Positions 17,880 to 49,624 of a DNA stretch of 61,107 nucleotides are shown one piece after another. The position numbers were made by a program, and so were the translations under genes. The stretch lies in sequence record SRR20825019_2850. The stretch is one strand, 5' to 3'. Positions within the stretch are counted from its first letter, which is position 1. Each line of letters starts with the position of its first letter. The notes below the pieces were generated by a model that saw only the letters and a program-made list of their open reading frames with translations, did no database searches and was not told the DNA's origin.

Positions 17880-17909
17880 GGCAGCTTTGGGTGGAGAGCG
17901 GTCATTCGC
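17880..17909 (+). repeat. Module-boundary repeat R1 (short form)
   Basis: ggcagctttgggtggagagcggtcattcgc; 23/30 identical by hand to 49595-49624. Confidence 0.65.
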
Positions 17910-18010
17910 ACGATGGTCGCAAAAGATTGGCTGCGCGACCCGAAACTACTATTCGTCGTCAGGCATATGTGTTCACTTTGAGTACACGGCATTGTTTGCT
18001 CCCTTGCGAC

Positions 18011-19053
18011 TAGACCGGTCCCCTGATTGATGGAGTCGATTTGAGATTCCCAAGTCAGTTTGTTTCTGATTCAACATGTAGGCTTGGATCGGAGGCCAGC
18101 ATCTCATGGTTCGAGCTTACTCCCTTGATCTACACGAGCGTGTTGTTGCGGCGCTTGGAGTTGACGACAGCTGTCGCGTGGTGGCGTCCCGGTTCAGTGT
18201 TTTGGTTGCGACGGTGGTCCGCCGGGGTCAGCGTCAGCGGGAGACCGGCTCGCCCGCACCGGGCAAGTATGGCGCGCATAAGCGCCATCGTGTTGAGCTG
18301 CACCGGAATCTGGCCCATCGACTGGTTGCCGCGCGGCCGGACCAGCCGGTAGGGGAGTTGCGGGAGGAACTTATGGCACACGGCATTGAGTTGAACCCGG
18401 AGTCGATCCGGCGCTTCCTCCATGCCGAAGCGCTTAGTTTCAAAAAAAAGCGCCTTCGCCACGGAGCAGGACCGGCCTGATATCTCTCGCCGCCGCGCCC
18501 GCTGGTGCCGCCATCAGAAAGGCATCGAGCGGAGCCGTCTGGTCTTCATTGATGAAACCTGGGCCAAGACCAACATGGCGCCCCTCCGGGGATGGGGCGA
18601 GCGCGGGGAGAGGTTGATCGGTAAGGTGCCGCATGACCGCTGACGAACCTATACCTTCATCGCCGCCTTGCGCAGCGACCGCGTGGACGCCCCTTTCCTG
18701 TTCGACGGGCCAATCAATGGTGAGCGTTTCCGCACCTGAGTCGAGCAGGCGCTGGTTCCAACCCTGAAGCCCGGCGATGTGGTGGTCCTGGACAATCTCG
18801 GCAGCCACAAAGGAAAAGCCGTCCGGCAAGCCATCAGGGACGCTGGCGCGCACCTGCTCTTCCTGCCCGCATACAGCCCCGATCAACCCTATCGAGCAGT
18901 TCTTCTCGAAGCTCAAACACTGGCTCAGACGCCAGAACATACGAAGCCCTGTGCAGCGCAATCGCCAATACCCTCGACGCTCTCCCGCCAGAAGAGTGCA
19001 CAAACTACATCCAAAACTCGGGGTATGATCCCATCAAATAGGGGAACGCTCTA
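18011..19053 (+). mobile_element. IS630 family insertion sequence, decayed
   Basis: cTAg at both ends; imperfect terminal IRs (tagaccggtcccctgattgatgg / ccatcaaataggggaacgctcta); transposase motifs present. Confidence 0.9.
18106..19028 (+). pseudogene. IS630 transposase pseudogene
   Basis: AYSLDL, FIDETW, VVLDNL, LPAYSPD..NPIE; slippery A8G at 18442-18450; in-frame TGA at 18641 and 18737; frameshift near 18884. Confidence 0.88.
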
Positions 19054-19270
19054 GAATCAACCATTTCCGTGAAAACTTAGAGCCCAGAACACAAATGCCC
19101 CCTGGGTCGGCATTCTCTTTGTCATTCTATAAGCCAAATCAAAATTCTCGCAATAATAGCTTAACAAAATCAAAACAATCTCTTTGCTTGTGAATAATTC
19201 GAATTTTTATGCATATTAAATTACGACAAATATTACTCACGTTTCAACCCTAACAACGGAGTACCTGACA

Positions 19271-20419
19271 GTGATTTCGAGCAAAAACATCGATAGAGAT
19301 CTGGTCATTTTGATCTTTGGATACGGTGTCCTCTCAGGTGCCGTCTTGGACCACCTCTCAAATCGCGGTTATCCTGCAGAAATCCACATCGCAGGACGAA
19401 GCCTCGAGAAACTTTGCCGGAGAGTGAATCTCGCGAGATATGCATCGGCGAACTTCGGGCATTTTCCAAAAATTTTCGAACATCAAAACGATATCTATGA
19501 CGTGGCCGCGACAGCCGAATTGATTGCGCAGGTCAAACCGGATCTGATCTTTAATGCTACCTCGCCACTCCCATGGTGGGCGATCAGCAAGCTTCCGAGC
19601 GATATAGCCAAGCTGGTAAACGACGCTGGAGGCGGGGCATGGACGCCAACTGATGCGGTTTTGCCCTATAAGCTGGCTCAAGCACTAAAACTTAGTGGCG
19701 AACAGGGGATCTTTGTAAACGGATCGTATGCTGACGTCGTCAACCCTGCCCTAAGGGGCATCGGTTTATCCCCATCGGTTGGTGTCGGTAACGTCGCCAA
19801 CGCGGTCCCTGGGCTACGTTACGCGATCGCGGATTTGTCTGGGCGGCCTGCGGATGAATTGATCGTCCGCTTCGTGGCGCACCATTTCATCAGTTTCTCA
19901 ATGCCAACACTCGGCCACACGAGTGGCGCCCCCTATAACCTTACAGCAGAATATCGCGGGCAGGATATTTCCGCAGAATTCAACCCTGAGGAAGCCTTCA
20001 CCTTGGTGGCCACCAGGTTTCGGCGCATTAAAGGTCTTGAGGGCCAGGCCGTTACAGCTTCCTCGGCCATGCAGGTGCTCGACGCAATAATCACCGACAG
20101 CGGCGCAAATTGTCATGCGCCTGGCCCGCTGGGATTGCCTGGTGGCTACCCAGTCAAATTAAACCGAAATGGCCCCGTACTGGATCTCCCACCCGGACTA
20201 ACCACAGAGGAAGCCGACCGGATCAACCGGGTTGGCCAGAAATGGGATGGGATCGATGAGATCGATCTCAACGGAAAAATCCACTTCACGCAAAAGTGCC
20301 AGGACATTATGCGATCGGTTTTCAAATTCGACTGCTCCGTGATGCCGATAAAAGAGTGCGAACAATGGGCCGCCGAACTTCTGATGAAGTTTGACGAAGT
20401 TCTTGAGAAGGCGGCGTAG
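19271..20419 (+). CDS. Saccharopine-dehydrogenase-like NAD(P)-binding oxidoreductase, substrate unknown
   Basis: N-terminal Rossmann IFGYGVL...IAGR, KPDLIFNA, GVGN, HAPGPLGLPGGYPV; GGAG RBS before GTG. Confidence 0.6.
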   Translation: MISSKNIDRDLVILIFGYGVLSGAVLDHLSNRGYPAEIHIAGRSLEKLCRRVNLARYASANFGHFPKIFEHQNDIYDVAATAELIAQVKPDLIFNATSPLPWWAISKLPSDIAKLVNDAGGGAWTPTDAVLPYKLAQALKLSGEQGIFVNGSYADVVNPALRGIGLSPSVGVGNVANAVPGLRYAIADLSGRPADELIVRFVAHHFISFSMPTLGHTSGAPYNLTAEYRGQDISAEFNPEEAFTLVATRFRRIKGLEGQAVTASSAMQVLDAIITDSGANCHAPGPLGLPGGYPVKLNRNGPVLDLPPGLTTEEADRINRVGQKWDGIDEIDLNGKIHFTQKCQDIMRSVFKFDCSVMPIKECEQWAAELLMKFDEVLEKAA

Positions 20420-20421
20420 CC

Positions 20422-21843
20422 ATGTCTGATCATTTAGAGCGGATTGCTCACGTCCGGTCGGTGCTCTCGGGGCGATCTGGCGATCAGCCATTTGACCGGG
20501 TACATCCGGAAGTTATCTCATTGGCCAACGGCGACGGAACACGGCGACCGCATGAGAACACGATCGAGGCCGCCGTCTGTGCGATCTTGGATTCTGATAG
20601 CTATTCGTTCGACAATTATCATTTCCAAGAAGTCCATCGACTATTTGCACAAGCAGCACGCCACGATTTGACTCAAATAGGAGTATCGTCAAAACAGACT
20701 GGAAACCTGTTGGTCGACTTTGGGTCGTCCAGCATCATTACAGGCATATTCCAATGTCTCCTGAGCCCGCAAGATATCGTGCTCTCTGCACCCGCCTTTT
20801 ATCATGGGCTAATCGAATGGTGCAACGTCAGCGGTGTGGATCTCGCCGTCATAGGCAGGGGCGAGCCTGGTGCGCCGAGACATTCGGCCCACATCATTCG
20901 TGAGTGGTTCGAGACAGCGGATCCAGAAACGCGGCGGCGGACCCGGGCAATCTTCTTCCCCAATCCAACATTCACTGGCCATGTCTATTCACACGAAGAG
21001 TTGCGTGAGATCGCCCAGACCATTGGGGAATTTGGCCTGATCGCTGTTTGCGACATGGTGTTTTCTGGAGTGGAATATGGCGATAGACACGCCCTCTCTC
21101 TAGCGGTGTTCCGCGATATTTCTGACCGTGTGATAACCGTGAGAAGCGTGTCCAAGGCCCACAATCTTGCCAATATCCGCGTCGGCTGGGCAGGTGGAAG
21201 TGCGGATTTCATCACACGACTAGAGGACTACAGGGAAGTCACAAAGGGCTCGGTGCCTTTCCTGTGTCAATCGATCGCTGCTGCAGCTCTGACAGCACCA
21301 GAAACCTATGGAAGAGACAATGCAGAGGAGTGCCAGAGACGCGCTAATTCAATTATTCATTGGGTGGAGGCGTTGAATCTCAGGGTCCGTCGTCACTCTG
21401 GGATCGACACATGCCTCCGCCCACTGGGGATACCCCAAGCGGGCCACTCCATCCTCCTCGACGCGTCACCTTTACAGGGCATGGAGACGCCGGACGGGAT
21501 GCGATTGGAGACAAGCGTAGATCTGTGCGAGTTCTTCCTGCAGCACCATCGCGTCTGCATCTCCCCTGGCTACTCGATGGGGTTCGATGGGATGGAATTT
21601 CGACTAGCTTACGGTTCCGTCGGACTGAACCAGTCATATTCGGCTAGCAGGAAGGCCGAACTAGCCGCAGCTCTCCGAGGAGCGGGACACAAGACAGACC
21701 GTGAGGCCCAGCAGATCACGCCTTTCGTAGGTGGGTCGCGATTGCTCCGGCAAGCATGCAACCGCATGGAGCAAGCGATTGATGCCATTTTGAAACACAA
21801 TCAATTGGCCGAGCAGAGCAACGTCAATGAACTTGCTTCGTAA
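20422..21843 (+). CDS. PLP-dependent fold-type I enzyme (aminotransferase class I/II-like)
   Basis: SVSKAHNLANIRVGW (PLP Lys), FFPNPT, CDMVF, FRLAY. Confidence 0.8.
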   Translation: MSDHLERIAHVRSVLSGRSGDQPFDRVHPEVISLANGDGTRRPHENTIEAAVCAILDSDSYSFDNYHFQEVHRLFAQAARHDLTQIGVSSKQTGNLLVDFGSSSIITGIFQCLLSPQDIVLSAPAFYHGLIEWCNVSGVDLAVIGRGEPGAPRHSAHIIREWFETADPETRRRTRAIFFPNPTFTGHVYSHEELREIAQTIGEFGLIAVCDMVFSGVEYGDRHALSLAVFRDISDRVITVRSVSKAHNLANIRVGWAGGSADFITRLEDYREVTKGSVPFLCQSIAAAALTAPETYGRDNAEECQRRANSIIHWVEALNLRVRRHSGIDTCLRPLGIPQAGHSILLDASPLQGMETPDGMRLETSVDLCEFFLQHHRVCISPGYSMGFDGMEFRLAYGSVGLNQSYSASRKAELAAALRGAGHKTDREAQQITPFVGGSRLLRQACNRMEQAIDAILKHNQLAEQSNVNELAS

Positions 21844-22951
21844 CCCGTCTCACCAGAATACCAGGCGGGCTTCGGCACATGAAGTGCGCGTGGATTATGA
21901 ACGCATCCAGGACAACTGGTCGACGATCAGCCGGATGACCCGACACGGAACAAGTGTGGCCGGCGTACTGAAATGCGACGCCTATGGCTTTGGCGTCAGC
22001 GAGGTCGCCAAAACGCTTTACCGAAGGGGATGCCAAACCTTCTTCGTCAGTTCCGTCGAGGAAGCAGTCATGGTCCGGAAAGAGGTTCCGGACCCGAATG
22101 TGAGAGTCATCGCCCTTTACCCGGATCTTTCGGTGCTAAACGTGAGCAATGTATTGAGGTCTTACTCGATCACGCCCTGCCTAGCATCCCTCGCAGACGC
22201 GAGAATGGTCCTTGATTTTGATCTAACTTCAGATCTTGTCGTTCTCGTTGATACAGGGATGTCACAGCAGGGCATTCCAGCACAAGACGCTCCAGCGCTT
22301 TCGCGCATGCTCGCGAACCGCCGCACTTCAAAGCTTTTGGTGCTCAGCCACCTCGCCAATTCAGAGAACCGATCCGCAATCGAGAACAGACAGCAACTTA
22401 GTTCTTTCCTGTCCATCTGCGCTGAATTGCAGCCGGACGAACGCAGCCTAGCTGCATCCGCCGGTATTATGCTTGGGTCTGACTACCATTTCGATCTTAT
22501 CCGCACTGGCGATGCTCTTTTCGGCATCAATCCTTTAGCCTCGTTTCCGGCTCCTACGCGCCCGGTCTTGTCACTCACCGGGCGCATCGAGTCCATCCGA
22601 ACTGTGCCTGAGGGAAAAGCTATAGGCTATGGCGGCGATTGTACCTTAGCCCGAGATACTCGCCGGATTGCAATGGTTCGGGTCGGCTATGCTGACGGCT
22701 ATCCCCGCCTTACCCGAGGACATCGCCATGCGATTGTTAACGGACGAGCGTTAAGAATCGCCGGGCAAATTTCGATGGAATTCACCTGCATCGATGTCAC
22801 CGATGTACAGCAAAGTCTGATATCGGTCGGGACCGATGTTGAACTAATCGGCGACTATATAACCCTAAACCATATCGCTGAAAGCGCGGGAACCGTCGCT
22901 ACTGAGATCGCACTTCGCATCCTCTTGTCACCTTCGAATATACGAAAATGA
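21827..22951 (+). CDS. Alanine racemase-family PLP enzyme (divergent)
   Basis: VLKCDAYG (catalytic Lys), VDTGM, SHLA, IGYGG (catalytic Tyr), GYADGYPR. Confidence 0.85.
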   Translation: MNLLRNPSHQNTRRASAHEVRVDYERIQDNWSTISRMTRHGTSVAGVLKCDAYGFGVSEVAKTLYRRGCQTFFVSSVEEAVMVRKEVPDPNVRVIALYPDLSVLNVSNVLRSYSITPCLASLADARMVLDFDLTSDLVVLVDTGMSQQGIPAQDAPALSRMLANRRTSKLLVLSHLANSENRSAIENRQQLSSFLSICAELQPDERSLAASAGIMLGSDYHFDLIRTGDALFGINPLASFPAPTRPVLSLTGRIESIRTVPEGKAIGYGGDCTLARDTRRIAMVRVGYADGYPRLTRGHRHAIVNGRALRIAGQISMEFTCIDVTDVQQSLISVGTDVELIGDYITLNHIAESAGTVATEIALRILLSPSNIRK

Positions 22952-23009
22952 CAAACAGCATTTGTTGACACGAGCCCTCATCCGCCAGAGCAACTGCTAG
23001 GGAATTTAC

Positions 23010-23810
23010 ATGTCTAGGGAAATCTCGTCTCTGTCGGAGATCAGTAACCGCTATTCATCCATCATTGTGGATGTGTGGGGCGTTTTGTGCGACGGCGTCA
23101 ACGCGCATGGACCTGCGAAGGATGCCCTGTCAAGATATCGAGAAAATGGGCATGTAATTCTCCTATCCAATACTGCACGATCAGTTAGAGGGCTCGGACA
23201 GTTTCTCGACAGCATAGGAATAACCTCTTCCCTCTACAATGGAATCGTGACCGCAGGGCAGTTGTGTCGCGATTCTATTCAGGCGAGCGGACTGGCCTAT
23301 AAGTCGATCTATCATCTCGGATCAGAGGATGACCTCCAAATATTCGCAGACATCGCAGTCCCATTTTGTAGCACGTTAGCGGATGCGTCGGCCCTCCTAT
23401 GTACGGGCCCCAATAGTAACGACAGCGATCTCTCCAAAGAATTTGAAACGATGGCTCGTGCTATTTCTCTCAATATGCCCATGATTTGCGCGAACCCGGA
23501 TCTCTACGTGCAGGTTGGTAATAAGACGATACCCTGCGCAGGCATTCTCGCAGCACAATATGGGAAAATGGGTGGGGCGGTTCAGTATTTCGGCAAACCG
23601 TATGGAGCAATTTACGATCAATGCTGGCATCATTTACGCCAGGCGGGCATATCGGACGATCCGGGCAATATACTCGCAATCGGTGATACGATCGCAACCG
23701 ACATTTACGGTGCCCAGAAAGTTGGGATTCAATCCTTGTTCATCCGCAACTCTAGCACTCTCGATTGCTGGGATGTGGAGCCGCATTATCACATGACATA
23801 TTTAGCCTGA
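23010..23810 (+). CDS. HAD-superfamily class IIA hydrolase (TIGR01459-like)
   Basis: DVWGVL, LLSN, CANPD, GKPY, IGDTIATDIYGA. Confidence 0.85.
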   Translation: MSREISSLSEISNRYSSIIVDVWGVLCDGVNAHGPAKDALSRYRENGHVILLSNTARSVRGLGQFLDSIGITSSLYNGIVTAGQLCRDSIQASGLAYKSIYHLGSEDDLQIFADIAVPFCSTLADASALLCTGPNSNDSDLSKEFETMARAISLNMPMICANPDLYVQVGNKTIPCAGILAAQYGKMGGAVQYFGKPYGAIYDQCWHHLRQAGISDDPGNILAIGDTIATDIYGAQKVGIQSLFIRNSSTLDCWDVEPHYHMTYLA

Positions 23811-23897
23811 CGACGGAGGCCCCACCTTGATAAGGTTTTGGCATCGGAACAGCTTAATTTCAAATGGAGACGCGCGCCTTCGTGGAAGGGGCGCCGA

Positions 23898-24908
23898 ATG
23901 AATTCCTATCAGACCCGCTCGATAGTTGCGCTGTCCGCATCAGAATTCAGTTGGGCCATGCTCCTGGTCGCTAGTCATTTAGCCATTGCTCGCTATGCTC
24001 TAGAGCCGTTCCTGTTCTCGACTATTCAGTTATTTTCGGGAGGGCTCGTTCTGATCCTGCTGTCCCGGCATCCGCTCGACTGGCGTGATTTCCTTCTCGA
24101 TTACCATACCATCTTATACGGGGTGGCACGTGTCGGAACCGGCGCCTTCTTCACAGCAGCCCTGGTTCACATCGCCGCGTCCAGCGCCGCGATGCTCGGC
24201 ATCTTCAATGTTACCATTGGCATGACACTGCTCTTCATGCTGCACCGGAAACTGCCATCCATGGCCGAATTGCCGGGCCATGGTTTGATCCTGGGCGGGT
24301 TTCTAACTCTCTGCTGGCAGCTGGAGGATGGCTTTTCCAACCCCGCGATTCTGTTCATGCTCGCCTCGGAGGTCTGCGTCGTGATCTCGTCTATCGTCGC
24401 CGAGCGGCACCCTCGGAACCAGGGCGATAACCCGGGACAACGCGCCTATCTCACCGGCGTCCTGCTTACGACAAGTGGTTTCCTGACAGTCTTGGGGGCG
24501 CTCGCCATCAACTTTATCTCTTTGGCGCTAGTCGGAGATAGTGGTTTCACGGACGTCGGCGCGGCGCTTTCGGCAGTCTTCCAGCCTGATGTCTGGATCT
24601 TTGGCGCCCTTATTGGTGTCTTATTACGCGGTCCGGTTGTATATTTCTCGCTCCGGGCCGTTCAACTCGCGGGCGCACAGTCCTATCTCGCTTTCTCCGC
24701 TTTGCTACCCTTCCTATCCTTGGGCCTCGAGCATCTGTTGTCGGCCTCTGGACACCAATTGGCTAGCATCACAAGGCCAGAGCAAGTTGCAACTGGACTG
24801 ATCATGACACTCGGTTCGCTATGGGTTCTGGCTAATCAGCAGAATTGGCCAGTTGTCCATCGCCTTGTCGGACGAACAGCACCCGTTGCCAAAGGTGATG
24901 ACGATTGA
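23898..24908 (+). CDS. EamA/DMT family membrane transporter (probable exporter)
   Basis: About 10 hydrophobic segments in two repeats; last gene of the operon. Confidence 0.65.
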   Translation: MNSYQTRSIVALSASEFSWAMLLVASHLAIARYALEPFLFSTIQLFSGGLVLILLSRHPLDWRDFLLDYHTILYGVARVGTGAFFTAALVHIAASSAAMLGIFNVTIGMTLLFMLHRKLPSMAELPGHGLILGGFLTLCWQLEDGFSNPAILFMLASEVCVVISSIVAERHPRNQGDNPGQRAYLTGVLLTTSGFLTVLGALAINFISLALVGDSGFTDVGAALSAVFQPDVWIFGALIGVLLRGPVVYFSLRAVQLAGAQSYLAFSALLPFLSLGLEHLLSASGHQLASITRPEQVATGLIMTLGSLWVLANQQNWPVVHRLVGRTAPVAKGDDD

Positions 24909-24973
24909 CCAACAGTTTGCCGGCAGCCACGCCATGGCGGCCGGCTGAAAGACCTGATCCCCCGGCAGCTCTT

Positions 24974-25246
24974 TCAAGATCGCCCAACCTGAGACGGGCT
25001 ACCCGACGCCTCGGTAAGCAGTACGTCACCGGCCTTGGGGCCGAACACTTCACGCTCTGTCGGCGTTAGGTTCATCTCCAGAAGATCTGAGAGGTTAATA
25101 CCGCTGGGGGTGATGTTGGCGGCACGAACTTATTGGGTCATATGTGCGCCGAAATCCTGCTCGGGCGAGCGCTGTCGACCAAGCCGCACCTCTCCGGCCT
25201 GATCCACGCGCACTAACGCCCAACCGCGTGGTAAATTGCGTTCAGA
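24974..25246 (-). pseudogene. hsdS: Type I restriction-modification specificity subunit, N-terminal fragment
   Basis: Hand translation SERNLPRGWALVRVDQAGEVRLGRQRSP...Q*VRAANIT...GDVLLTEASGSPSQVGRS*; LPxGW start and TRD-like motifs; internal TAA at 25130-25132; not in ORF track. Confidence 0.72.
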
Positions 25247-25578
25247 ATGGGTGGTCGGTTTGTCCGTGTGCTTTTTTCATCAATTTTCCGGAGGAACTAC
25301 CTAGCGTTAAGCTGGATGATTAACAACGCCGCTCCCCACGTCCCGTTGGCCATCGTACCGTAATCAAGTAGCGAGGGTGAGCGCAATGGAAGGTAGATGT
25401 TAAGTTCCGTCATATGATGTGCAGGACCTTTTCTGAATCGTTTGGGCTGCTCGGTAGAGATTTTGCAGATGCGCTCATAGTGCGGGGGTCCTCCGAGCAC
25501 ATTGAGGCGCTTGACGACGTTACATTCAAGCATGAACAGGTCCCGATGCTACCGCAGCCGGTTTCGGCGACCTCAAGC

Positions 25579-25631
25579 GACCGCTTTGGGTCGCTGCCGG
25601 GCGAATATGCCCATCTGGCTCGGCAGGGTGG
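25579..25631 (+). repeat. Module-boundary repeat R2 (long form)
   Basis: gaccgctttgggtcgctgccgggcgaatatgcccatctggctcggcagggtgg; 45/53 identical by hand to R3. Confidence 0.85.
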
Positions 25632-25834
25632 ACAATTGCCATCGATCATTTGAAATAGGAAATCCTAAACCCCCACAGCCCCTAGTGCCGCAGCTTTTCA
25701 CACCACCGTGGCCTGTCCGGCGCACTTCCCTGTCATGCGCCTGTAGAAGCATGGCGGCACCATGACTTGGTGCCAGCTTTCTGATCGGCTGTCTCTGCTT
25801 TCGCAGCGCCGACCGCCTCTTCGGCATCATCGCG

Positions 25835-40698: not shown

Positions 40699-40760
40699 AT
40701 TTCCGAACAGCAGCCATATCCTTCAGTCCGATAAGTTCTTCGGCCGGAAAGGCCCTCTCT

Positions 40761-41993
40761 TTGTCCCAATCGATTCAGCTGAACTCCGACCTCGCACCAT
40801 CTTCTGTGGACGATATCCCGGCCCTCGTTGAGGCATTGGTCGCACCGATCCGCGAGACCGTGTCCCGTCCGGTCGCAGCGGCGACTGGCTGGACACTAGC
40901 ATCCAGCCCAGCCGCCGTAGACAGGCTGCCGCGCTTCGATCAGTCCGCGGTGGACGGCTATGCATGGGCAGGGAGCATTCCGGCCTCGGGCCTCAGACTC
41001 TTGCGGCTTCTCCGCGCCGGCGATCCGGCCGTCGTTTTGCGCCACGGAGAAGCCGTCCATGTGATGACCGGCGCCTCTATCCCCGTCGGCGCTGACCGGG
41101 TCGCCATGCAGGAGCGCTGCAAACTCGTTGGGGACATAGTGACTCCGCCACCAACCAACGCCGGCGCGAACATTCGCCGGGAAGGTGAAGATATCGCCGC
41201 CGGCACTCCGATCGCCCCGGAAGGCACCTGTCTCGATGCTCGCCACGCAGCGTTGCTTGCCGCCACCGGAACGCAGGGTGTGAGCTGTGTTCGACCGCTC
41301 AGGATCCGGCTGATAGCCACCGGAAACGAGCTCTGCGATGGTGCGCCCGGCACGGTTCAAATCCGCGATTCCAACACACCCATGATAAAAGCCTTGCTCT
41401 CCGCGAGTCCCGACATCGACTTGACGGCGGAGCAATGCCCGGACCGCCCGTCCGATCTTCGAGATCTATTCGTCCGCGCCAGAGACACCGCCGACCTGAT
41501 TATCACGACAGGCGGCATGTCCTTCGGACAGGAAGACCATGTCCGGTCGGCGTGCCTTGCTGCCGGCGGCGAGTTCGTCTTGCATTCCCTGCTCATGAAA
41601 CCAGGCAAACCGGTCGGTCTCGCCCGGGTCGGACGATGCATTCATCTGGGCCTGCCGGGAAATCCGTTCGCTGCGCTCGTCGCCTTCCTGCTTGTCGGCC
41701 GCCCGGTTCTGGACCGATTAAGAGGACGGCAGTCAGGTCAGCGCTGGCTCGAAGCACGCGCCGATTTCACGCTGGAACGGCAACCCGGGCGTGTGGAATT
41801 CTTTCCGGCCAAACTGGCCCCCTCCAACCCTGCTGCCGGCCTGGTGCTGCATCGTCTGGGCAAGGGCGGCAGCGCACGCCTGGCACCACTCGTCGCAGCA
41901 GACGCTCTCGGACGGGTCGACGCGCATGCCGATCACATCAAACCCGGCGACCCTCTCCGCTTCATGGATTTTACAAACGTACTTGGAAACTGA
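40761..41993 (+). CDS. moeA: Molybdopterin molybdenumtransferase
   Basis: FDQSAVDGYA, MTGA.IP.GAD, TGNEL, TTGGMS, MKPGKP, GLPGNP; TTG start uncertain. Confidence 0.88.
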   Translation: MSQSIQLNSDLAPSSVDDIPALVEALVAPIRETVSRPVAAATGWTLASSPAAVDRLPRFDQSAVDGYAWAGSIPASGLRLLRLLRAGDPAVVLRHGEAVHVMTGASIPVGADRVAMQERCKLVGDIVTPPPTNAGANIRREGEDIAAGTPIAPEGTCLDARHAALLAATGTQGVSCVRPLRIRLIATGNELCDGAPGTVQIRDSNTPMIKALLSASPDIDLTAEQCPDRPSDLRDLFVRARDTADLIITTGGMSFGQEDHVRSACLAAGGEFVLHSLLMKPGKPVGLARVGRCIHLGLPGNPFAALVAFLLVGRPVLDRLRGRQSGQRWLEARADFTLERQPGRVEFFPAKLAPSNPAAGLVLHRLGKGGSARLAPLVAADALGRVDAHADHIKPGDPLRFMDFTNVLGN

Positions 41994-42047
41994 TCGAATA
42001 GCCCTTGAATTGAACCTGAAATCATATGGACCACCATACTAAAAATT

Positions 42048-42097
42048 GACCGCAATGGATTGCTGCCAGCCTAATAGGCATCAGACTCAGCAGGTGG
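42048..42097 (+). repeat. Module-boundary repeat R4 (long form, degenerate)
   Basis: gaccgcaatggattgctgccagcctaataggcatcagactcagcaggtgg; 41/52 identical by hand to R3. Confidence 0.75.
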
Positions 42098-42158
42098 AAA
42101 TCGTCGCTCGCTGCAAGCCGCCGAAAGTGAAGCCAACGATTATGGAATTAAGCGCGCG

Positions 42159-42176
42159 GTGTCATTCGGAGGTCAT
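42159..42176 (+). promoter_or_regulatory. Putative Pho box
   Basis: gtGTCAT-tcgg-agGTCAT, GTCAT direct repeat at 11-bp pitch. Confidence 0.55.
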
Positions 42177-42241
42177 ACAAAGATGTAAAGAGCTATCGGG
42201 TGTCGAGACCAACTGTCTTGTCATTCGATAGGAGTGCGCAT

Positions 42242-43177
42242 ATGGACAGCATGAAACGCATTGCCGGGATCGGTGCCAGCCTCGGGGCCGTCAATGGCGA
42301 TCTGGACCGGGTCCGGCAGCAAGCCGACGCGTTGGCGGCGCTCGGTGCAGATGTGATGGAGCTTTATGCGTCTTCACTGGGCGTGGTCGCCAACGCCAGA
42401 TTGCTGCCAGCACGCACGACGGAGCTTCGGGCGCTTTGCCAGGAGCGGCCATTGGTGCCGACCTTGCACGCACCCATCCCGATCGACTTCATGGACCGCG
42501 ACAACATCGCTCTGCATCGCTCCGCCGCACGGGTGTCAGTCGATCTGGCTGCCGAGATCGGCGCGCCGATCGTCGTCATCCATGCAGGACGGGCAGATCC
42601 CACCGATTGGGCCTCGGACCCTGACGGCCTGCTTTCATTTGAGCGTGAGGAGTTGTCCGCCCTCGGTGATCACGCGGCACAATGCGGCGTTCGGATCGCC
42701 CTTGAGAACATAAGCCCGAACCTGGCTGTTATTGGTGGCAAAGCCACCAGCTACTCGCTTGATCCGGCAGCACTGGCCCGGCAGCTCGGCGCATTGGATC
42801 ACCCGGCCGTGACCGGTTGTCTCGACTACAGCCACGCCAAGCAGGGTGCCGGTCTTCTTGGTCTGGACCCGGTCGCGGGTGCGGCGGCGATGGCACCCTT
42901 CACCGGTCATATTCATATCAGCGAAGCGTCCGGTATGCCGACAATTCCCTCGATCACCTCTCAGCCGGACTGGATGTATTTTGGTGTGGGCGATATGCAC
43001 GCGCCCTTGGGGATTGGATGCATGGACCTGACGGCGCTCGCAGACGCGTCACCGGTTCTCCCGGGCACGCTCGCCGTGTTGGAGCTTCAGGGCCATGCCC
43101 GCGCGATGCTGGCCGACAGCCTCCGCCATCTGCGTGCCTTCGCCGACAGGGTCAACGCCCATCCGATCGCGGCATGA
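42242..43177 (+). CDS. Sugar phosphate isomerase/epimerase family (xylose-isomerase-like TIM barrel)
   Basis: TLHAP, VVIHAG, IALEN, CLDYSH, HIHIS, DMH, VLE; AGGAG RBS. Confidence 0.8.
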   Translation: MDSMKRIAGIGASLGAVNGDLDRVRQQADALAALGADVMELYASSLGVVANARLLPARTTELRALCQERPLVPTLHAPIPIDFMDRDNIALHRSAARVSVDLAAEIGAPIVVIHAGRADPTDWASDPDGLLSFEREELSALGDHAAQCGVRIALENISPNLAVIGGKATSYSLDPAALARQLGALDHPAVTGCLDYSHAKQGAGLLGLDPVAGAAAMAPFTGHIHISEASGMPTIPSITSQPDWMYFGVGDMHAPLGIGCMDLTALADASPVLPGTLAVLELQGHARAMLADSLRHLRAFADRVNAHPIAA

Positions 43178-43908
43178 GCCACGCACGCCCCTGGGTGATC
43201 GCCCATCGCGGCCATTCCGCCGCAGCAGCAGAGAACAGCGTCTCTGCGTTGGAGCGGGCAATCGCCGCCCGCGCCGATGCGGTGGAAGCAGATGTTCGTA
43301 TCTCATCCGATGGCATCGCAGTGGTATCGCATGATGCACACCTTTTGCGGCTCGCGGGTGATGACGGTGTCGTTGCCGACCTCTCGGCCGAGGAACTTGA
43401 TACCCGTGCCCGCCGCGCCGGGGCCGAAATCCCGCGCCTGTCCACTTTGATGCGGGCAGCGCGAGGGCGCGTTCCGCTGATGCTCGACGTCAAGGCGCGG
43501 GACCCGATCGTGCTCACGCATATCGTTTCTGCTGCAAACGAAGCTGACTTCCCGCCATCTGCGATCATTCTCGGCCTGCGGGATGCGGCATTGGTCCGGC
43601 CGTGCAGAAACCAGCTGCCGGATGCCGGTATTCTGGCCCTGCATGGGGAGAGCGCACCGCTGCTTTCGTTCCGCAATGCCGGCGTTACCCTTGTCCGGCT
43701 GTGGGAGGCGCAGGCCGATCCGGCAACGGTCTCCGGTCTGCGCTCGCAAGGCTGCACACTCTGGGTGACGACCGGCGGACCGGACACCGGCCGTGCTGTC
43801 GGAGACGCAACGCCTGACTCACTGGCTCATCTGATCGCAGCCGGTATCGACGGCATCCTGGTCAATGACCCCGATCTCGGTCGGCATGTGATCGATCATC
43901 ATCTCTGA
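43174..43908 (+). CDS. Glycerophosphodiester phosphodiesterase (GDPD family)
   Basis: IAHRG, ENS, EADV, HD, LDVK, GIDGILVNDP; ATGA overlap with upstream gene. Confidence 0.88.
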   Translation: MSHARPWVIAHRGHSAAAAENSVSALERAIAARADAVEADVRISSDGIAVVSHDAHLLRLAGDDGVVADLSAEELDTRARRAGAEIPRLSTLMRAARGRVPLMLDVKARDPIVLTHIVSAANEADFPPSAIILGLRDAALVRPCRNQLPDAGILALHGESAPLLSFRNAGVTLVRLWEAQADPATVSGLRSQGCTLWVTTGGPDTGRAVGDATPDSLAHLIAAGIDGILVNDPDLGRHVIDHHL

Positions 43909-43913
43909 CGCGT

Positions 43914-44801
43914 TTAACGCTGGGTCGGGTCGAGGCGTGTCCGCAACCAGTCACCGAACAGGCTCATCGACAGCGTGGTGATGAAGATTACAGCCCCCGG
44001 GATCACCGCCAGCCACCATGAAGTCAGCAGGTAATCCCGTCCTTCGCCCAGCATCTGGCCGAGAGAGGTCAGTGGCGGCTGGATGCCAAGCCCCAGAAAA
44101 CTGAGAGAGGTCTCCAGCAGGATGGTTTGGGGAAAATTCAGCGTCAGCTGCACGATCAACGGACCGATCACGTTCGGCAGGATATGGCGGACATAGAGGC
44201 GCCAGGGCCGTGCGCCCAATGCCCGGACCGCGACGGCATATCCCTGCTCCTTCGCCGACAGGACAAGACCTCTGGTGAGCCGGGCATAGGTCTCCCAACC
44301 AGCGAGCCCCATGAGTGCCAGGAACAGATAAAAATTGTTGCCAAAGAATGCCAACACAGCGAGTGCGATGATCAGGAAGGGCATCGCCGCCTGCCAATCG
44401 ACCAGCATCATGACGATCTCGTCGACCAGTCGGCCATAATGTGCGGCAAGGACGCCGAGAACAGTGCCAAGAACCGCACCGATCAAGGTTCCCATCAGGG
44501 CAAGCGCGATGGACACCTGGGTCGCCACCAGCAGGCGCGACAGCAAGTCACGGCCGAGCTTGTCGGTGCCGAGCACATGCCCTTCAATCGAGAGAGACGA
44601 CCAGAATGGCGGTTTCAGCCGATAGAGCAGGTTTGTGTCCTCATAGCCGTAAGGCATCAGCACCTGAGCGAATATTGCGATAACAGCGACCAGGACGAGG
44701 AAACCGGCTGCGAGCCAAACCAGTATCGGCATGCGCCAGAATCTCTCGCCGCGCGGGGCGGATGCCTCAGGCTTCGCCGAAGCAGCGGTTTCGGCGCTCA
44801 T
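43914..44801 (-). CDS. ABC permease, DppC/AccE-like
   Basis: LGTDKLGRD, RHILPN, LSFLGLGIQPP. Confidence 0.9.
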   Translation of the reverse strand: MSAETAASAKPEASAPRGERFWRMPILVWLAAGFLVLVAVIAIFAQVLMPYGYEDTNLLYRLKPPFWSSLSIEGHVLGTDKLGRDLLSRLLVATQVSIALALMGTLIGAVLGTVLGVLAAHYGRLVDEIVMMLVDWQAAMPFLIIALAVLAFFGNNFYLFLALMGLAGWETYARLTRGLVLSAKEQGYAVAVRALGARPWRLYVRHILPNVIGPLIVQLTLNFPQTILLETSLSFLGLGIQPPLTSLGQMLGEGRDYLLTSWWLAVIPGAVIFITTLSMSLFGDWLRTRLDPTQR

Positions 44802-45736
44802 CGTGATTGCCCTCCACTACCCAGCCGGATTCGGGGGTCGAGCCAGCCATAGGCGAGATCAACCAGAAAATTGGCCGTCACCATGGTGATCGCCACCAGA
44901 ACCACGATGCCTTGCACGATCGCGAGGTCGCGATCGGCAACAGAACTTGTCAGCAGGCGTCCGACCCCCGGCCAGGCGAACACGTTTTCGGTGACCACGG
45001 CACCACCGATCATCCCGCCCAGGCTGAAACCGACAATGGTCACAACCGGCACGGCTGCATTGGGAAAGGCGTGCAGCCAAACCCGCCGGGACATCGACGC
45101 ACCCTCGGCCTCGGCGGTTCGGATATAGTCCTTCGACAGTACGTCGAGCATGGCGGAGCGGGTAAAGCGGGCAATCGCACCCGCAAAGGCGGTCGCCAGT
45201 GTGAACACCGGCATGACCATATGCTCCCATGTGCCGTAGCCGGAACTGGGCAGCATCCGAAGATTCATCGCAAACAACAGGATCAGCAGGATTCCCAGAA
45301 AGAAGTTTGGCATCGAGAACCCGAACACGGCGAAGGACATGGTCAGCCGGTCGATCCAGCTATCCCTCCAGATCGCCGCCATGACGCCAAGCGGAATACC
45401 AAGTGCGAGTGCCGTGACGAACGTCGCCAGACCCAGCTCGACAGTCTTCGGAACCCGTTGCCAGATGAGGTCGAGGGCCGGCTGGCTGTTGCGGAAGGAG
45501 ACGCCAAAGTCGCCCTGGAATGCGGCCTTGAAATAGAGCAGATACTGCTCCCAGACAGGCCGGTCGAGGCCCCAGAGGATGCGGTAATACTCCCGTATTT
45601 CCTCGCCGACATCGTCGGGCAAGAGCTGCTCGGTCGGATCGCCTGTGATCCGTAACACGATAAAGACGAAGCTTACCACCAGCCAGAGGGTGAAGATCGC
45701 CCGCAGAAGCTTGATCGAGACATAACGAAGGTTCAC
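44798..45736 (-). CDS. ABC permease, DppB/AccD-like
   Basis: GLDRP, GDFGVSFR, GAVVTENVFAWPGVG; GTG start inferred. Confidence 0.9.
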   Translation of the reverse strand: MNLRYVSIKLLRAIFTLWLVVSFVFIVLRITGDPTEQLLPDDVGEEIREYYRILWGLDRPVWEQYLLYFKAAFQGDFGVSFRNSQPALDLIWQRVPKTVELGLATFVTALALGIPLGVMAAIWRDSWIDRLTMSFAVFGFSMPNFFLGILLILLFAMNLRMLPSSGYGTWEHMVMPVFTLATAFAGAIARFTRSAMLDVLSKDYIRTAEAEGASMSRRVWLHAFPNAAVPVVTIVGFSLGGMIGGAVVTENVFAWPGVGRLLTSSVADRDLAIVQGIVVLVAITMVTANFLVDLAYGWLDPRIRLGSGGQSR

Positions 45737-46734
45737 AGGAGATTCTCCGCGTGGTGGCATGCCACGAAGCCGCCGCCGGGAAGTGGGCGCAGGTCCGGGC
45801 GCTCCTGCCGGCATTGATCGGTAGCGAACGGACAGCGTGGGTTCAGCGCACACCCCTCTGGGGGAAACAGCGGGCTCGGCGGCTCACCGTGCAGGGCGAC
45901 CGGCTGCACCCGGCGGCCATGCCGCGACCGGGCTGCCGGCACCGCTCCGATCAGCGCGCGGCTATATGGATGGGCGGCCCGCGAGAACAGGGCATCACGG
46001 CTTGCGATCTCGACAAACCGGCCGAGATACATGACCGCGACCCGGTCGGCGACGTGGCGCACCACGCTGAGATCGTGGGAGATGAACAAATAGGTCAAGC
46101 CGTAGGTGCCCTGAAGATCTTGCAGCAGGTTGACGACCTGAGCCTGGACCGACACGTCGAGTGCGGCCACCGGCTCGTCGCAGACCACCAATTTAGGCTC
46201 CAACACCAACGCGCGGGCGATCACTGCCCGTTGCTGCTGGCCGCCGGACAGCTCGTGCGGGTAGCGCCCCATCAGATGACCGGCAAGCCCGACAGAATCC
46301 AGCATCTGACGGGCCTTCTCCAACCGGTCCGAAGGCGCACCGATATCGTGGATCTCAAGACCTTCGGCCACTTGCCGGTCTATGGTCAGTCTGGGGTCGA
46401 GTGCCCCCCGGCTGTCCTGGAAGATGAGCTGCAGATCCCGTCGCCGGGAGCGCCAGCGGGCTGCATCGGCACGTGATAGATCCTCGCCCTCGAACGCGAT
46501 GACACCGGCACTGGGCGTCAGGAGATTGAGGACCAGATTGCCCACCGTCGACTTGCCGCATCCGCTCTCGCCGACCACCGCCAGTGTTTCTCCGGCGGTA
46601 AGATCGAATGATACATCGGCCACGGCCGTCAGCATCGGTCTCGGTCCGAATAGCCGCTCACGCGGCATCGGGAACCGCTTGGCCAATCCCTGAACCCTCA
46701 GGATCGGTGCCGGTTCATGCGACGTTCCGTTCAT
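45733..46734 (-). CDS. ABC ATPase, DppF/AccC-like
   Basis: [22 protein letters not shown]-terminal Cys cluster. Confidence 0.9.
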   Translation of the reverse strand: MNGTSHEPAPILRVQGLAKRFPMPRERLFGPRPMLTAVADVSFDLTAGETLAVVGESGCGKSTVGNLVLNLLTPSAGVIAFEGEDLSRADAARWRSRRRDLQLIFQDSRGALDPRLTIDRQVAEGLEIHDIGAPSDRLEKARQMLDSVGLAGHLMGRYPHELSGGQQQRAVIARALVLEPKLVVCDEPVAALDVSVQAQVVNLLQDLQGTYGLTYLFISHDLSVVRHVADRVAVMYLGRFVEIASRDALFSRAAHPYSRALIGAVPAARSRHGRRVQPVALHGEPPSPLFPPEGCALNPRCPFATDQCRQERPDLRPLPGGGFVACHHAENLL

Positions 46735-47705
46735 GCAGCTACGGTGTCCGTTTTCAAGCCGTGATGACAGGCAATCAAACCATCAGCTGACGCCCGCAAG
46801 TCGGGCAGGGTGCTGCAGACCGGCGATGCCTGCGAACAGCGTGGGGCAAAAGCGCAGCCCGGCGGCATCGCATGCAGCGGCGGCACCGTTCCCTCTATCG
46901 GTGTCAAACGATCAATATCATCGTCGAGGAAAGGCAGGGAGGTCAGGAGCCCGCGCGTGTAAGGATGACGCGGCTGGGCAAAAAGGGCATCGGCAGGCGC
47001 CAGTTCAACAACCCGCCCCGCATACATGACTGCCATCCGGTCGGCGACCTCTGCCACGAGACCCAAATCGTGGGTCACGAACAGGATGCCCATGCCGATC
47101 TCCCGCTGCAGGCGTGCCAAGAGATCGAGAATTTGCGCCTGAACAGTGACGTCCAGTGCCGTCGTCGGCTCATCGGCGATGAGAAGGGCGGGCCCTCCGG
47201 CGATCGCCATTGCGATCATCGCGCGCTGCTGTTGTCCGCCGGAGACTTGATGGGGATAATCAGCGCCTCGGCGCTTCGGCTCAGGAATGCCGACCAGGTC
47301 AAGCAACTCTATCGCTCGCCTCTGTGCAACGCGACGGCTCTCGCCGGTGCGGATCTGATAGGCCTCGGCAACCTGCCACCCGAGGGTGCGGACCGGGTTC
47401 AGACAGGTCATCGGATTTTGGAAGATTATGCCCATGCCGCGTGATCGTCTGCGCTTGTCATCCGGGTCTTCAGGATCGATTTCGACACCCTGAAAGACCA
47501 CGCTGCCGCTCTCGATCGAGGCGCGACGGCCGAGCAAACCGATCACCGACAAGCATGTCAGCGTTTTGCCGCACCCGCTCTCGCCCACAAGGCCGACGGT
47601 TTCGCCTTCCTCAAGGCTTAGAGAGACATTGCGTACAGGGAAGACCGGCCCATCAGGAAGGTCGATGCGGACCGTCAGGTCGCGGATATCAATAAGGGTA
47701 CTCAA
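46731..47705 (-). CDS. ABC ATPase, DppD/AccB-like
   Basis: GESGCGKT, YPHQVSGGQ, ADEPTTALD; TTG start inferred. Confidence 0.88.
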   Translation of the reverse strand: MSTLIDIRDLTVRIDLPDGPVFPVRNVSLSLEEGETVGLVGESGCGKTLTCLSVIGLLGRRASIESGSVVFQGVEIDPEDPDDKRRRSRGMGIIFQNPMTCLNPVRTLGWQVAEAYQIRTGESRRVAQRRAIELLDLVGIPEPKRRGADYPHQVSGGQQQRAMIAMAIAGGPALLIADEPTTALDVTVQAQILDLLARLQREIGMGILFVTHDLGLVAEVADRMAVMYAGRVVELAPADALFAQPRHPYTRGLLTSLPFLDDDIDRLTPIEGTVPPLHAMPPGCAFAPRCSQASPVCSTLPDLRASADGLIACHHGLKTDTVAA

Positions 47706-47770
47706 TTCAGCAAAGACATCAGCCGGCGCTGCGGCGGGGAACGATCCCCACCGCAGCGCACAAGCCGATG

Positions 47771-49333
47771 TCAGTCTCCGAAGGTCAGGTTGTAAGGGCG
47801 GAAGTCCATGTAGTAGAGCGCGTAGGGCTTCCAATGGACGCTCGACTTCATGGCATAGGTTTCCAGCGGATTGTACAGCATGGTCCCCGGAGCCTCGTCC
47901 ATCCAGATATCAAGTGCCTCGCGATATGCCGCTTTCCGCGCGATCATATCGGTTTCAGACTCGATTTGACGATGCAGCTCGTTGAAGCGTGCCGGCGCCT
48001 TCCAGGCCCGGTCCGGGAACTTCTTGTTGTTCTGCACCGGGCTGAGATTGCCCCACTGCGGGACGAAGGATCCCAGCGGGTCCGGCATGCGGTGGGTGTT
48101 CGACCAAGGACGGATATGCGTGCCTTCCTGACCGGTCACCTGAGAGAAGGTTTCCACCGGCTCGACCTTCACGTTGAGGCCGACATCCTTCCACATCTGC
48201 TGCATCGCCTGGGCAGCTTCAAGGCTGTTCAGGTAGTAGTTCAGCGGCAGGCGATACACGATCTCCTCACCCTTGTAGGACGATGCCTCGACCAGCGCGC
48301 GGGCCTTCTCGGGATTGAACTCGAAGCCCGGATAGTCCGGCATGTACATCACGTAGGACGGCAACTGGTGGCCGTTGGGTGTGTAGTTCTTGTCGTCCCA
48401 AAGTGCCTTGCGCAGCAGATCCCGGTCGATCGCCATGGACAGGGCCTGACGGACGTTCTTGTCCTTCATGAACGGAGCGTCCTGGTAGAAAACCAGCATA
48501 TGGGTGTTATCAAGGACGATCTGCTCGACCTGGATATCATCGTAGCCCGCCAGAACCGGAACCTGGTCCGGCGGCACGTTGACGATGATATCGAACTCAC
48601 CGCTGACCAGACCGGCGATCCGCGCCGAGGTCTCCGGAACCACCCGATAGGTAATCGACTTGGCTGTCGGCTTGCCTCCGAAATAATCGTCATTGGCGTC
48701 CAGCTTGACGTATTCGCCATCGACGAACTCGGCCAGCTTGTAGGGTCCGGTTCCAACCGGCGCACGCTTGAAGGACTCGTTGCCCTTCAGCACGTATTCG
48801 CGCGCATTGACGATCCAGCTGGCGTAGCCGGCCATCCGCTGCTCGAGCATGACATCGGGCACCTTGCTGACCACGCGAACGGTATAGCGGTCGATCTTCT
48901 CGGCATGGCTGATGGTGTCCATGAACCGTTTGCCGGTTGCGACCACCGGTTCTTCACCGATCATCCGCCCCATCGTGAAGGTGAACACCACATCATCGGC
49001 AGTCAATTCGTCGCCATTGTGGAACTTGACGCCCTTGCGCAGCTTGAACTCAATGGTCTTGTCGTCGATCACCGTCCAGCTCTCGGCGAGGCCCGGCACC
49101 AGCTTGGAGCCTCCACCCTGACCGTCGGACAGGAAGTCACGGCGGATCAGCGAGTCAAACATCGAATAGATGAGACGGACATGGATATTCCCCATCCCAT
49201 CTGCTGGCTCGAGCGTATCGGGAATATCGTTGACGGCAACGACGAGATCGGGTCGGTCGTCTGCAATTGCGGTACCTGCCGATAGCCCAAGAGCCATCAG
49301 TCCAGCCGCAGCAAGACGGGTCAAAACTTTCAT
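47771..49333 (-). CDS. Family 5 ABC substrate-binding protein, AccA-like (sugar-phosphate or phosphodiester binding)
   Basis: FDSLIRRDF, NYY, WSN, WKAPARFNEL, VHWKP..MDFR.NLTFG resemble Agrobacterium AccA as recalled; AGGAG RBS. Confidence 0.78.
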   Translation of the reverse strand: MKVLTRLAAAGLMALGLSAGTAIADDRPDLVVAVNDIPDTLEPADGMGNIHVRLIYSMFDSLIRRDFLSDGQGGGSKLVPGLAESWTVIDDKTIEFKLRKGVKFHNGDELTADDVVFTFTMGRMIGEEPVVATGKRFMDTISHAEKIDRYTVRVVSKVPDVMLEQRMAGYASWIVNAREYVLKGNESFKRAPVGTGPYKLAEFVDGEYVKLDANDDYFGGKPTAKSITYRVVPETSARIAGLVSGEFDIIVNVPPDQVPVLAGYDDIQVEQIVLDNTHMLVFYQDAPFMKDKNVRQALSMAIDRDLLRKALWDDKNYTPNGHQLPSYVMYMPDYPGFEFNPEKARALVEASSYKGEEIVYRLPLNYYLNSLEAAQAMQQMWKDVGLNVKVEPVETFSQVTGQEGTHIRPWSNTHRMPDPLGSFVPQWGNLSPVQNNKKFPDRAWKAPARFNELHRQIESETDMIARKAAYREALDIWMDEAPGTMLYNPLETYAMKSSVHWKPYALYYMDFRPYNLTFGD

Positions 49334-49445
49334 GGATCACGCTCCTGTATGACGAGAGGGCGTAAGATCCTTGGTAAGCGTTTAGTATTTATGATCGAAT
49401 AAAGGTGTATTTACTGTGGTGTTGCGTCAAATTCGCTGCGGAAAC

Positions 49446-49463
49446 ATTACAGATTAATGGCGC
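49446..49463 (-). promoter_or_regulatory. Putative Pho box upstream of the ABC operon
   Basis: Minus strand gcgcCAT-taat-CTGTAAT versus consensus CTGTCAT-AWAW-CTGTMAY. Confidence 0.55.
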
Positions 49464-49588
49464 TATTTTTTGGCGCCGTGAAGATTGATGCATGGCGATA
49501 CCCCTGAGCTCGAACCTGGATACCAGCCCGGTGTGAATGCGAAAATCACTCACGGTCTCGGAAGCAAAAGAGTAATGCCGCATTTTGG

Positions 49589-49624
49589 GCGAATGTCCGC
49601 TTTGGGTCGGAAGCAGTCATCCGC
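49589..49624 (+). repeat. Module-boundary repeat R5 (short form, hairpin)
   Basis: gcgaatgtccgctt-tgggtcgg-aagcagtcatccgc; arms 11/14 complementary; shares ccgctttgggtcg exactly with R2 and R3. Confidence 0.75.

Follow-up and report, generated by a model that had tools for sequence, protein, structure and literature searches.

The stretch of DNA analysed here (61,107 nt from sequence record SRR20825019_2850, one strand; referred to below as the window) carries an accessory region between a glutathione S-transferase (GST) gene and the hmu genes. Five copies of a degenerate repeat, R1-R5, are found in this region. The span between the outer copies R1 and R5 is 31.7 kb, and the inner copies divide it into four modules of 7.7, 1.5, 14.8 and 7.5 kb. 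An earlier note on this DNA had taken the repeats for recombination or insertion sites of an unrecognised gene-capture system. This idea is supported by the low-copy clusters of the repeat in relatives, by the position of synteny breakpoints and by a co-occurring recombinase. With a probability of roughly 0.6, R1-R5 are att-type sites, and the region is a recombinase-less tandem array of operon-sized modules inserted or exchanged at them.

The left anchor of the region is the GST gene (17140..17760, - strand; Pfam GST_N_3/GST_C_2), which is conserved and adjoins the variable DNA also in the relatives G001, G003, G044, G050 and G056. The conserved right anchor consists of an ABM monooxygenase gene (Pfam ABM) and hmuV (49723..50874, - strand). 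The flanks of the window are closest to Nisaea: the hmu proteins are 76-96% identical to those of N. denitrificans DSM 18348 (G001), and the DNA is 86-92% identical. Between the anchors, the block contents named in the earlier note were recovered with Pfam. Module 1 (17909..25577) has aminotransferase, alanine-racemase-like and HAD hydrolase genes together with unknown open reading frames; its GC content is 52-55% versus ~62% in the flanks, and it is absent from G001 and G002. Module 2 (25646..27137) contains a single gene (25835-26872, - strand) for a nucleotidyltransferase (PF12281). Module 3 (27205..42046) carries an arsR-phosphatase fusion, pstSCAB-phoU and genes for a response regulator, a phosphonate-type binding protein, a sensor kinase, a sigma-54 activator and the small and large subunits of arsenite oxidase, as well as moeA. 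It is absent from G001 and G002 except for paralog-level matches. Its aio genes show 74-78% DNA identity to aio on plasmids of other alphaproteobacteria, and a search of a plasmid collection gave only 60-80% matches to the pst and aio genes, with no close plasmid and no repeat. Module 4 (42111..49593) comprises sugar-phosphate isomerase-like and GDPD genes and a five-gene oligopeptide-type ABC importer, and it adjoins hmu in G056 too.

The repeat has a short and a long form. After a left arm (..GNCCGCTT) come a short centre, TGGGTCG, and a right arm (GGGTGG GAAGCGGAC..) that is an imperfect inverse of the left one. In the long form, a conserved 37-nt inner palindrome, GC.GCCGGCCGAATAGGCCATC.GGCTC.GCA, lies between the centre and the right arm; the short form is the long form minus this inner segment between the two GGGT(C/G)G motifs. 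R1 (17879..17908) is a short form with a left arm, a GGGTGG spacer and a right arm, and R5 (49594..49623) is another, with two inverted arms around GGGTCG. R3 (27138..27204) is the best long-form copy. R2 (25578..25645) is a long form with a decayed right arm, and R4 (42047..42110) is a decaying long form. In G050, the position of R1 is taken by an orthologous copy in the long form (C1:47786-47852).

Reading of the sequence and a covariance model both placed the five copies where the earlier note had put them, all on the + strand. Its hand counts were reproduced as well: R1 and R5 agree at 23/30 positions (77% in a repeat search), R2 and R3 at 45/53 (BLAST, 84.9% over 53), and the tails of R3 and R1 at 18/21 by reading. 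The exact 13-mer CCGCTTTGGGTCG common to R2, R3 and R5 occurs three times in the 61 kb, in those copies only; at <=3 mismatches it is not enriched (40 matches vs 31.3 expected). All copies are intergenic. The + strand open reading frame at 17107-17835 (242 aa) is spurious, being an arginine-rich antisense frame of GST, and its tblastn matches reflect GST DNA.

A sequence-only model made from R2-R4 and two copies of Nisaea denitrificans was used to collect more copies. The second model, a covariance model with a nested dyad, was based on 38 copies from nine genomes, with R2-R4 in the training set and R1 and R5 outside it. Applied without filters to the window from end to end, this model listed 30 matches at E<=5. 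The top three were R3 (87.1 bits, E 1.9e-23), R2 (66.1 bits, E 3.4e-17) and R4 (49.8 bits, E 2.4e-12), followed by R5 (23.7 bits, E 1.4e-4) and R1 (19.0 bits, E 3.4e-3). The sixth match was R5 on the reverse strand (E 0.055), and all remaining matches had E>=0.47. Since the five best matches are R1-R5 and the remainder is weak, the window contains exactly five copies, all on the + strand. No copy lies in the flanks (1-17878 and 49624-61107), where the earlier note had seen no copies either. Across the 38 copies the best-conserved parts are the inner segment and GGGTGGGAAGCGG, and this conservation of the inner 37 nt suggests recognition by a protein.

The earlier description of the repeat as a hairpin holds for the dyad symmetry of the copies but not for their folding. 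A hand-drawn nested dyad (outer arms and two inner stems) pairs 77.6% of cells versus 27-46% when it is slid, and its covariation is modest, the observed measures being reached by 2-28 of 500 shuffles. RNAalifold found 0 conserved pairs over the 38 copies, and the folding energies of single copies were no better than those of shuffled sequences. Although real, the symmetry would suit a palindrome bound by a protein no less than a folded strand. It is very improbable that the repeats are functional RNA or regulatory elements (a small RNA, a terminator or an operator) lying between operons by chance. Their intergenic position and the conserved dyad symmetry would agree with such a role, whereas both folding results speak against it. 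So does the lack of an Rfam match, either at the gathering threshold over the window or at E<=1 over R2-R3. Moreover, the orientation of the copies relative to the neighbouring genes is inconsistent (convergent, divergent and tandem), and a role of this kind would leave the link to synteny breaks unexplained. The repeat as a part of a tRNA or tmRNA was rejected as well, because neither is present in the window.

In a sample of 61 genomes of the family, the repeat was found at E<=1e-4 in 11 genomes, with 35 matches and 1-11 per genome; these counts are lower bounds, only part of the candidates being scored. Seven of the ten genomes of the genus have it. The copies are co-oriented in every cluster examined: 5/5 in the window, 3/3 in G001:C10, 5/5 in G044:C18 (154.9-186.5 kb), 2/2 in the G050:C1 hotspot, 3/3 in G044:C9, 2/2 in G050:C4 and 2/2 in G056:C40. 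The clusters sit in accessory DNA, including a conjugative-plasmid-like contig of N. denitrificans. The profile scan of relatives thus returned copies that are few, clustered and co-oriented, not scattered through core intergenic DNA, and the low copy number together with the co-oriented accessory clusters is not the behaviour of repetitive extragenic palindromic (REP) sequences. Outside the family sample, a collection scan with a 17-base degenerate core found the full motif in 0 of 120 loci among the matches listed; the exact long-form core was found in genome contigs at one locus only, in a Nisaea metagenome-assembled genome, and the junction of module 2 with R3 had no match in metagenomes.

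These distributions bear on a second explanation, in which the repeat is a passive low-copy element (a relic resembling REP sequences or miniature inverted-repeat transposable elements (MITE), or a terminator-like palindrome), modules are exchanged by homologous recombination after conjugation, and recombinase units merely target the repeat. Such an explanation appears unlikely. A conserved sequence of 30-70 nt would be long enough for occasional RecA exchange; however, a passive repeat does not account for the strict co-orientation in all clusters, for 1-11 copies per genome with no spread into core intergenic DNA, or for the best conservation being found in the inner 37 nt.

The interval between GST and hmu is a hotspot, the DNA between the anchors differing by genome. 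It is 31.7 kb long in the window, 4.5 kb in G003, 12 kb in G050, ~11 kb plus module 4 in G056 and ~57 kb with five co-oriented repeats in G044, while in G002 the position corresponding to 10038 of the window joins 49668 directly. In G001 it is 2.8 kb of other DNA with one AT-rich AAA_13 gene. This gene (L001 11068-13395; 775 aa) may encode a defence-type ATPase, and sub-threshold relics of the repeat are seen at its flanks.

Comparison with six relatives shows that synteny breakpoints and the presence or absence of modules coincide with R1, R2, R3, R4 and R5, a correspondence that the earlier note had only anticipated. At R1, the left flank is common with G050 (92% over 412 nt) and the homology ends ~11 nt into the repeat. 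The same is observed for G001:C10:38706 and the recombinase site of G003:C4, which share the left flank (97% over 411 nt) up to ~11 nt into the repeat and differ to the right. Other pairs share the right flank from the start of the repeat and differ to the left: R4 and G056, R5 and G003:C4, and also G001:C10:23573 compared with G003:C4 and G056:C49. The homology of R4 with G056:C22 starts at 42044 and runs rightwards, the G056 copy being C22:12650-12712. At R5, homology resumes at ~49619 with G001 and at 49591 with G050, and R5 with the next 360-390 nt has a second copy in G003:C4, at the end of an integrase-mer element. The ABM segment to the right of R5 has been copied elsewhere as well: 49628-50249 is duplicated in G044 (C18:185824-186420 and within 125084-128252), and a part of it adjoins the recombinase-mer unit in G003:C4 (6995-7360).

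Module 2 gives the closest view of the module ends. The same 1.5 kb is present in G050 at a different site (C1:225634-227145) with 94% identity, next to a decayed recombinase gene. The homology starts at GGGTGG within R2 and ends at GACCGCTTTGG of R3. With the right half of R2 at one end and the left half of R3 at the other, the module takes along the right part of the preceding site together with the left arm of the following one. Such a unit would result from a crossover close to the centre of the site. A circular form of the modules is a presumed intermediate. A passive repeat is at odds with these ends, which are half-sites and not whole repeats.

Polymorphism at the repeats was also seen in near-identical DNA. 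Window positions 24500-28500 are contained in 19 public runs from 9 studies, and contigs of four runs were aligned to 24000-43999. In run X2, a 15.4-kb contig follows the window over 24000-27166 and again over 27138-32028, the two parts being separated by 1186 extra bases; R3 is interrupted by this insertion, and 29 nt of the repeat (27138-27166) stand at each end of it. A contig of X7 departs from the window at 27166, and that of X1 is colinear with it at R3. A second contig of X2 includes a 57-nt stretch identical to R3. In the X1 contig, R4 has two extra bases, which by reading bring it nearer to the consensus. Contig depth was several-fold higher at 31337-32670 and 36673-37339 in all four runs, with many loose ends. 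As a signal of copy number this rise was rejected, because the ABC ATPase domain of pstB and the sigma-54 AAA domains attract contigs of other organisms. The contig joints listed in the four runs were discarded likewise, since they fall within conserved ABC and sigma-54 domains and stem from other organisms.

The earlier note had supposed a recombinase encoded elsewhere; in relatives, a tyrosine recombinase was found, adjoining a half-site. To the right of module 2 in G050 stands the decayed gene of a small tyrosine recombinase, which begins after the left half of the repeat. An intact protein of 211 aa is encoded in G003:C4. It consists of the catalytic domain only (Pfam PF00589, Phage_integrase; E 2e-23, 83.5 bits vs cut-off 27.1), and the R, HxxR and H..Y motifs are readable in it. 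It reaches no curated NCBIfam cut-off; the best matches are the XerA, XerC and XerD models. The scores with XerC and XerD are 68 and 50 bits, below the cut-offs of 335 and 330, so that the candidate enzyme is neither XerC nor XerD. Among solved structures, Xer proteins are its nearest relatives (E ~1e-6).

The left arm and centre of the repeat (..CCGC[TT/AA]TGGGTCG) lie ~90 nt upstream of the recombinase start in 6/6 loci (G002, G003, G044, G036, G055 and G050), the loci counted being those where the DNA upstream was readable and the N-terminus of the recombinase was matched. At a seventh locus, a decayed second copy in G036, no left half-site was found. The unit of G003:C4 (4.3 kb) comprises the recombinase, a WGR protein and merRTPA, ends in a short-form repeat and is followed by the copy of the DNA after R5. 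In G044:C9, the unit is the recombinase alone; it is ~1 kb long and ends in a degenerate long form. Its size would fit the 1186-nt insertion of X2.

Nine of the 61 family genomes encode the recombinase, and six of these also belong to the 11 repeat-bearing genomes (Fisher p=5e-4, with no correction for relatedness). The protein family is large: E<=1e-10 is reached by at least 8000 database proteins, and the best 120 of them are 64-97% identical. In species-representative genomes, 570 of 602 pattern-matched stretches encode a relative of the recombinase. Eighty relatives were kept; they belong to Alpha-, Beta- and Gammaproteobacteria and are 63-80% identical. The 13-mer at <=2 mismatches lies 87-156 nt upstream of the gene in 12 of the 75 loci with enough upstream DNA. 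The control windows gave 0/73 and 0/72 upstream and 1/74 and 3/70 downstream, and the downstream matches look like right-end sites. A passive repeat would hardly show the same core motif upstream of the recombinase gene in three classes.

The contig G001:C10 (93.8 kb) of N. denitrificans shows how the repeats relate to conjugative DNA. It carries RPA, ParA/ParB, ArdC, a type IV secretion system, VirB8-11, TraG, NikA and a relaxase, and its further cargo includes two copper-resistance clusters and mer genes. A 14.9-kb nos cluster (N2O reductase) is located exactly between co-oriented short and long copies of the repeat. The stretches on both sides of it recur in G003, where different DNA is attached to them at the same positions of the repeat. 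With nos on a contig that resembles a plasmid or an integrative and conjugative element, N2O reduction may be transferable in Nisaea. In five relatives, a conserved gene of 571 aa is followed by a repeat variant whose left arm differs (G001:C3:100375, G002:C4:162342, G003:C57:172233, G050:C4:118111 and 102492, G056:C40:14568). The DNA to its right differs, with DarT/DarG and a UvrD-like helicase in G002 and serine proteases in G001. In G050:C4 the variant repeat and ~90 nt of its left flank are duplicated 15.6 kb apart. This locus looks like a second hotspot of the same system.

Some of these observations would also suit a third explanation, namely that the repeats are att sites left behind by larger integrative or conjugative elements, which a conventional large integrase had inserted in tandem, the small recombinase being unrelated cargo. 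The copies on G001:C10 flank the conjugative backbone (one copy follows the relaxase stop by 27 nt, another precedes ardC by ~350 nt), a serine-recombinase fragment is near one copy, and the duplication in G050:C4 resembles the attL/attR of an island. This explanation is nevertheless improbable: no full-length large integrase stands beside any copy examined, modules are as small as 1.5 kb with a single gene, and it is the small recombinase gene that a half-site consistently adjoins.

In the reading given at the outset, that of att-type sites, the four modules between GST and hmu would have been inserted or exchanged at the repeats in tandem and in one orientation. The likely enzyme is the catalytic-domain-only tyrosine recombinase of ~210 residues, which would cut these sites, act in trans on integrase-less modules and move them between chromosomal hotspots and conjugative plasmids. 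Several results weigh against this reading. Within the window, no recombinase gene was found (tblastn, E<=1e-3; also Pfam), in line with the earlier statement that neither an integrase nor a tRNA anchor is present there. R1 and R5 are individually weak matches to the model. No excision joint between two repeats was present in contigs of the four runs, which cannot show rare forms. The earlier note had also suggested an empty site, which did not materialise: none of the relatives joins GST to the hmu flank across one significant copy, and a clean single-copy site gives way to sub-threshold relics only (G001, 10.7 bits, E 0.75; G002, 9.8 bits, E 1.4; not significant). Indels of the left flank relative to G001 (~1067-2885, 13418-14425 and 14866-17114) have no repeat. 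Only 12 of the 75 distant loci keep the 13-mer at <=2 mismatches, and three family genomes with the recombinase showed no repeat in the scan.

Three further points against it count at the same time in favour of a passive repeat with homologous exchange. The breakpoints lie inside a conserved 70-nt repeat, within which site-specific and homologous exchange are indistinguishable. Module 4 is found in G003:C69:8288-15729 with 94% identity and with no repeat at either end, so that modules also move, or sit natively, without sites. With the query used, five of the 11 repeat genomes have no recombinase. In addition, the recombinase-only unit resembles a small insertion element inside a repeat.

Some further features of the modules and flanks were recorded. 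From the last gene of module 1 to R2 (24908-25579), ~670 nt have no open reading frame of 90 aa, and this DNA looks decayed; within it, 24931-24984 shows 93% identity to G002:C8:312621-312674. Upstream of the nucleotidyltransferase gene of module 2, ~110 nt of non-coding DNA (27002-27114) are 81% identical to G001:C10:62698-62809, beside ParB, and 26997-27084 shows 88% identity to G044:C24:39433-39520. The stretch at 27002-27114 may represent a small regulatory or RNA element that is conserved in mobile DNA. Homology of the nucleotidyltransferase itself with the open reading frame beside ParB was rejected, only the ~110 nt upstream being alike. In the left flank, the segment 14866-17114 holds a glyoxalase-like gene, an unknown open reading frame and a TetR gene, and G056 has a further 4.9 kb at ~15490.

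If the repeats are indeed the sites on which the small recombinase acts, marine Alphaproteobacteria could gain and lose operon-sized traits at defined hotspots and on plasmids. Among the traits concerned are arsenite oxidation combined with phosphate uptake, reduction of nitrous oxide, and resistance to mercury and copper, and the mechanism would be integron-like without being an integron. A wider and more tentative proposal, for which the odds are somewhat below even, is that the minimal recombinase runs a second integron-like capture system in Alpha-, Beta- and Gammaproteobacteria. Its palindromic sites of 30-70 bp would let operons be stacked, excised and shuttled between chromosomal hotspots and conjugative plasmids, and the window would be the equivalent of a cluster of attC sites lacking an integron integrase (CALIN). 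Because the recombinase family is very large, a defined pair of site and enzyme would open a common, unannotated layer of gene exchange to testing and would be of help in delimiting accessory modules when genomes are annotated.

The system was called unrecognised in the earlier note. No description of this site or enzyme was found in the literature, in searches of limited reach, but the general kind, arrays of modules at specific sites, is known. REP sequences and their composites (bacterial interspersed mosaic elements, BIME; REP doublets, REPIN) are likewise short intergenic palindromic repeats. They number hundreds per genome, whereas the present copies, by the lower-bound counts given above, are few and are confined to co-oriented clusters in accessory DNA. 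A gene for the REP-associated tyrosine transposase (RAYT) did not turn up in general scans, none of which was aimed at it. Small tyrosine recombinases of the FimB/FimE type have a similar size and the same catalytic-domain-only build, and the match of the present recombinase to the model of tyrosine-type DNA invertases (NF007371) is weak (E 1.6e-10, 40.8 bits, cut-off 222). Their sites are inverted repeats around a promoter, unlike the present direct repeats flanking kilobases of cargo.

Tycheposons of Prochlorococcus target tRNA genes and have larger recombinases. As outlined in the preprint on them (10.1101/2020.12.28.424599), they are similar in that tyrosine-recombinase elements and their cargo-only relatives pile up at hotspots and shape islands in marine bacteria. 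Tandem accretion of integrative elements and cis-mobilizable elements (CIMEs) is covered in a review of integrative mobilizable elements (PMC5704250). Common to both cases are direct att repeats that bound stacked elements, some of them integrase-less and mobilizable in trans, and the link to conjugation. Direct repeats at one locus, a feature of the CIME type, are present between GST and hmu, with 2-5 co-oriented copies in G050, G044 and the window. The recombinase units of G003:C4 and G044:C9, bounded by a half-site and a full repeat, would be candidates for an integrase-bearing element that shares att. Unlike in CIME accretion, the target here is not a tRNA gene or the end of a gene, the units are plain operons without mobility genes, and the recombinase is minimal.

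The pdif sites of Acinetobacter, recognised by XerC/XerD, are short, with two inverted arms and a 6-7-nt centre, and bracket accessory modules of plasmids. Most of these modules have no recombinase. A pdif site is defined by 28 nt, with two 11-nt arms and a 6-nt centre, and by its resemblance to chromosomal dif, and successive sites are of alternating orientation. In the short forms R5 and R1, two inverted arms likewise enclose GGGTCG and GGGTGG, respectively. However, the present copies are all direct, there is also a long form with an inner palindrome of 37 nt, and a dedicated small recombinase travels with the sites.

Integrons and CALINs differ from the present system in several respects. 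The RYYYAAC/GTTRRRY cores of attC are missing from R1-R5, as the earlier note had observed: there is no GTT, and the only AAC, in R5 (...CCGCAAC), belongs to a stretch that starts with C and not with a purine. The present site is conserved in sequence and not just in structure. The modules are operons of 1.5-15 kb with their own regulators, whereas integron cassettes are mostly promoterless single genes. The recombinase of ~210 aa scores 26.1 bits with TIGR02249 (cut-off 265) and 22.2 bits with NF011946 (cut-off 435), and its gene is itself a movable unit within the array. To our knowledge, integrons have not been reported in Alphaproteobacteria. The likeness lies in the organisation. In both systems, co-oriented and imperfectly palindromic sites separate unrelated cargo, the recombinase acts, or in the present case would act, on the sites and not on the cargo, arrays can persist without an integrase, and each unit carries parts of two sites.

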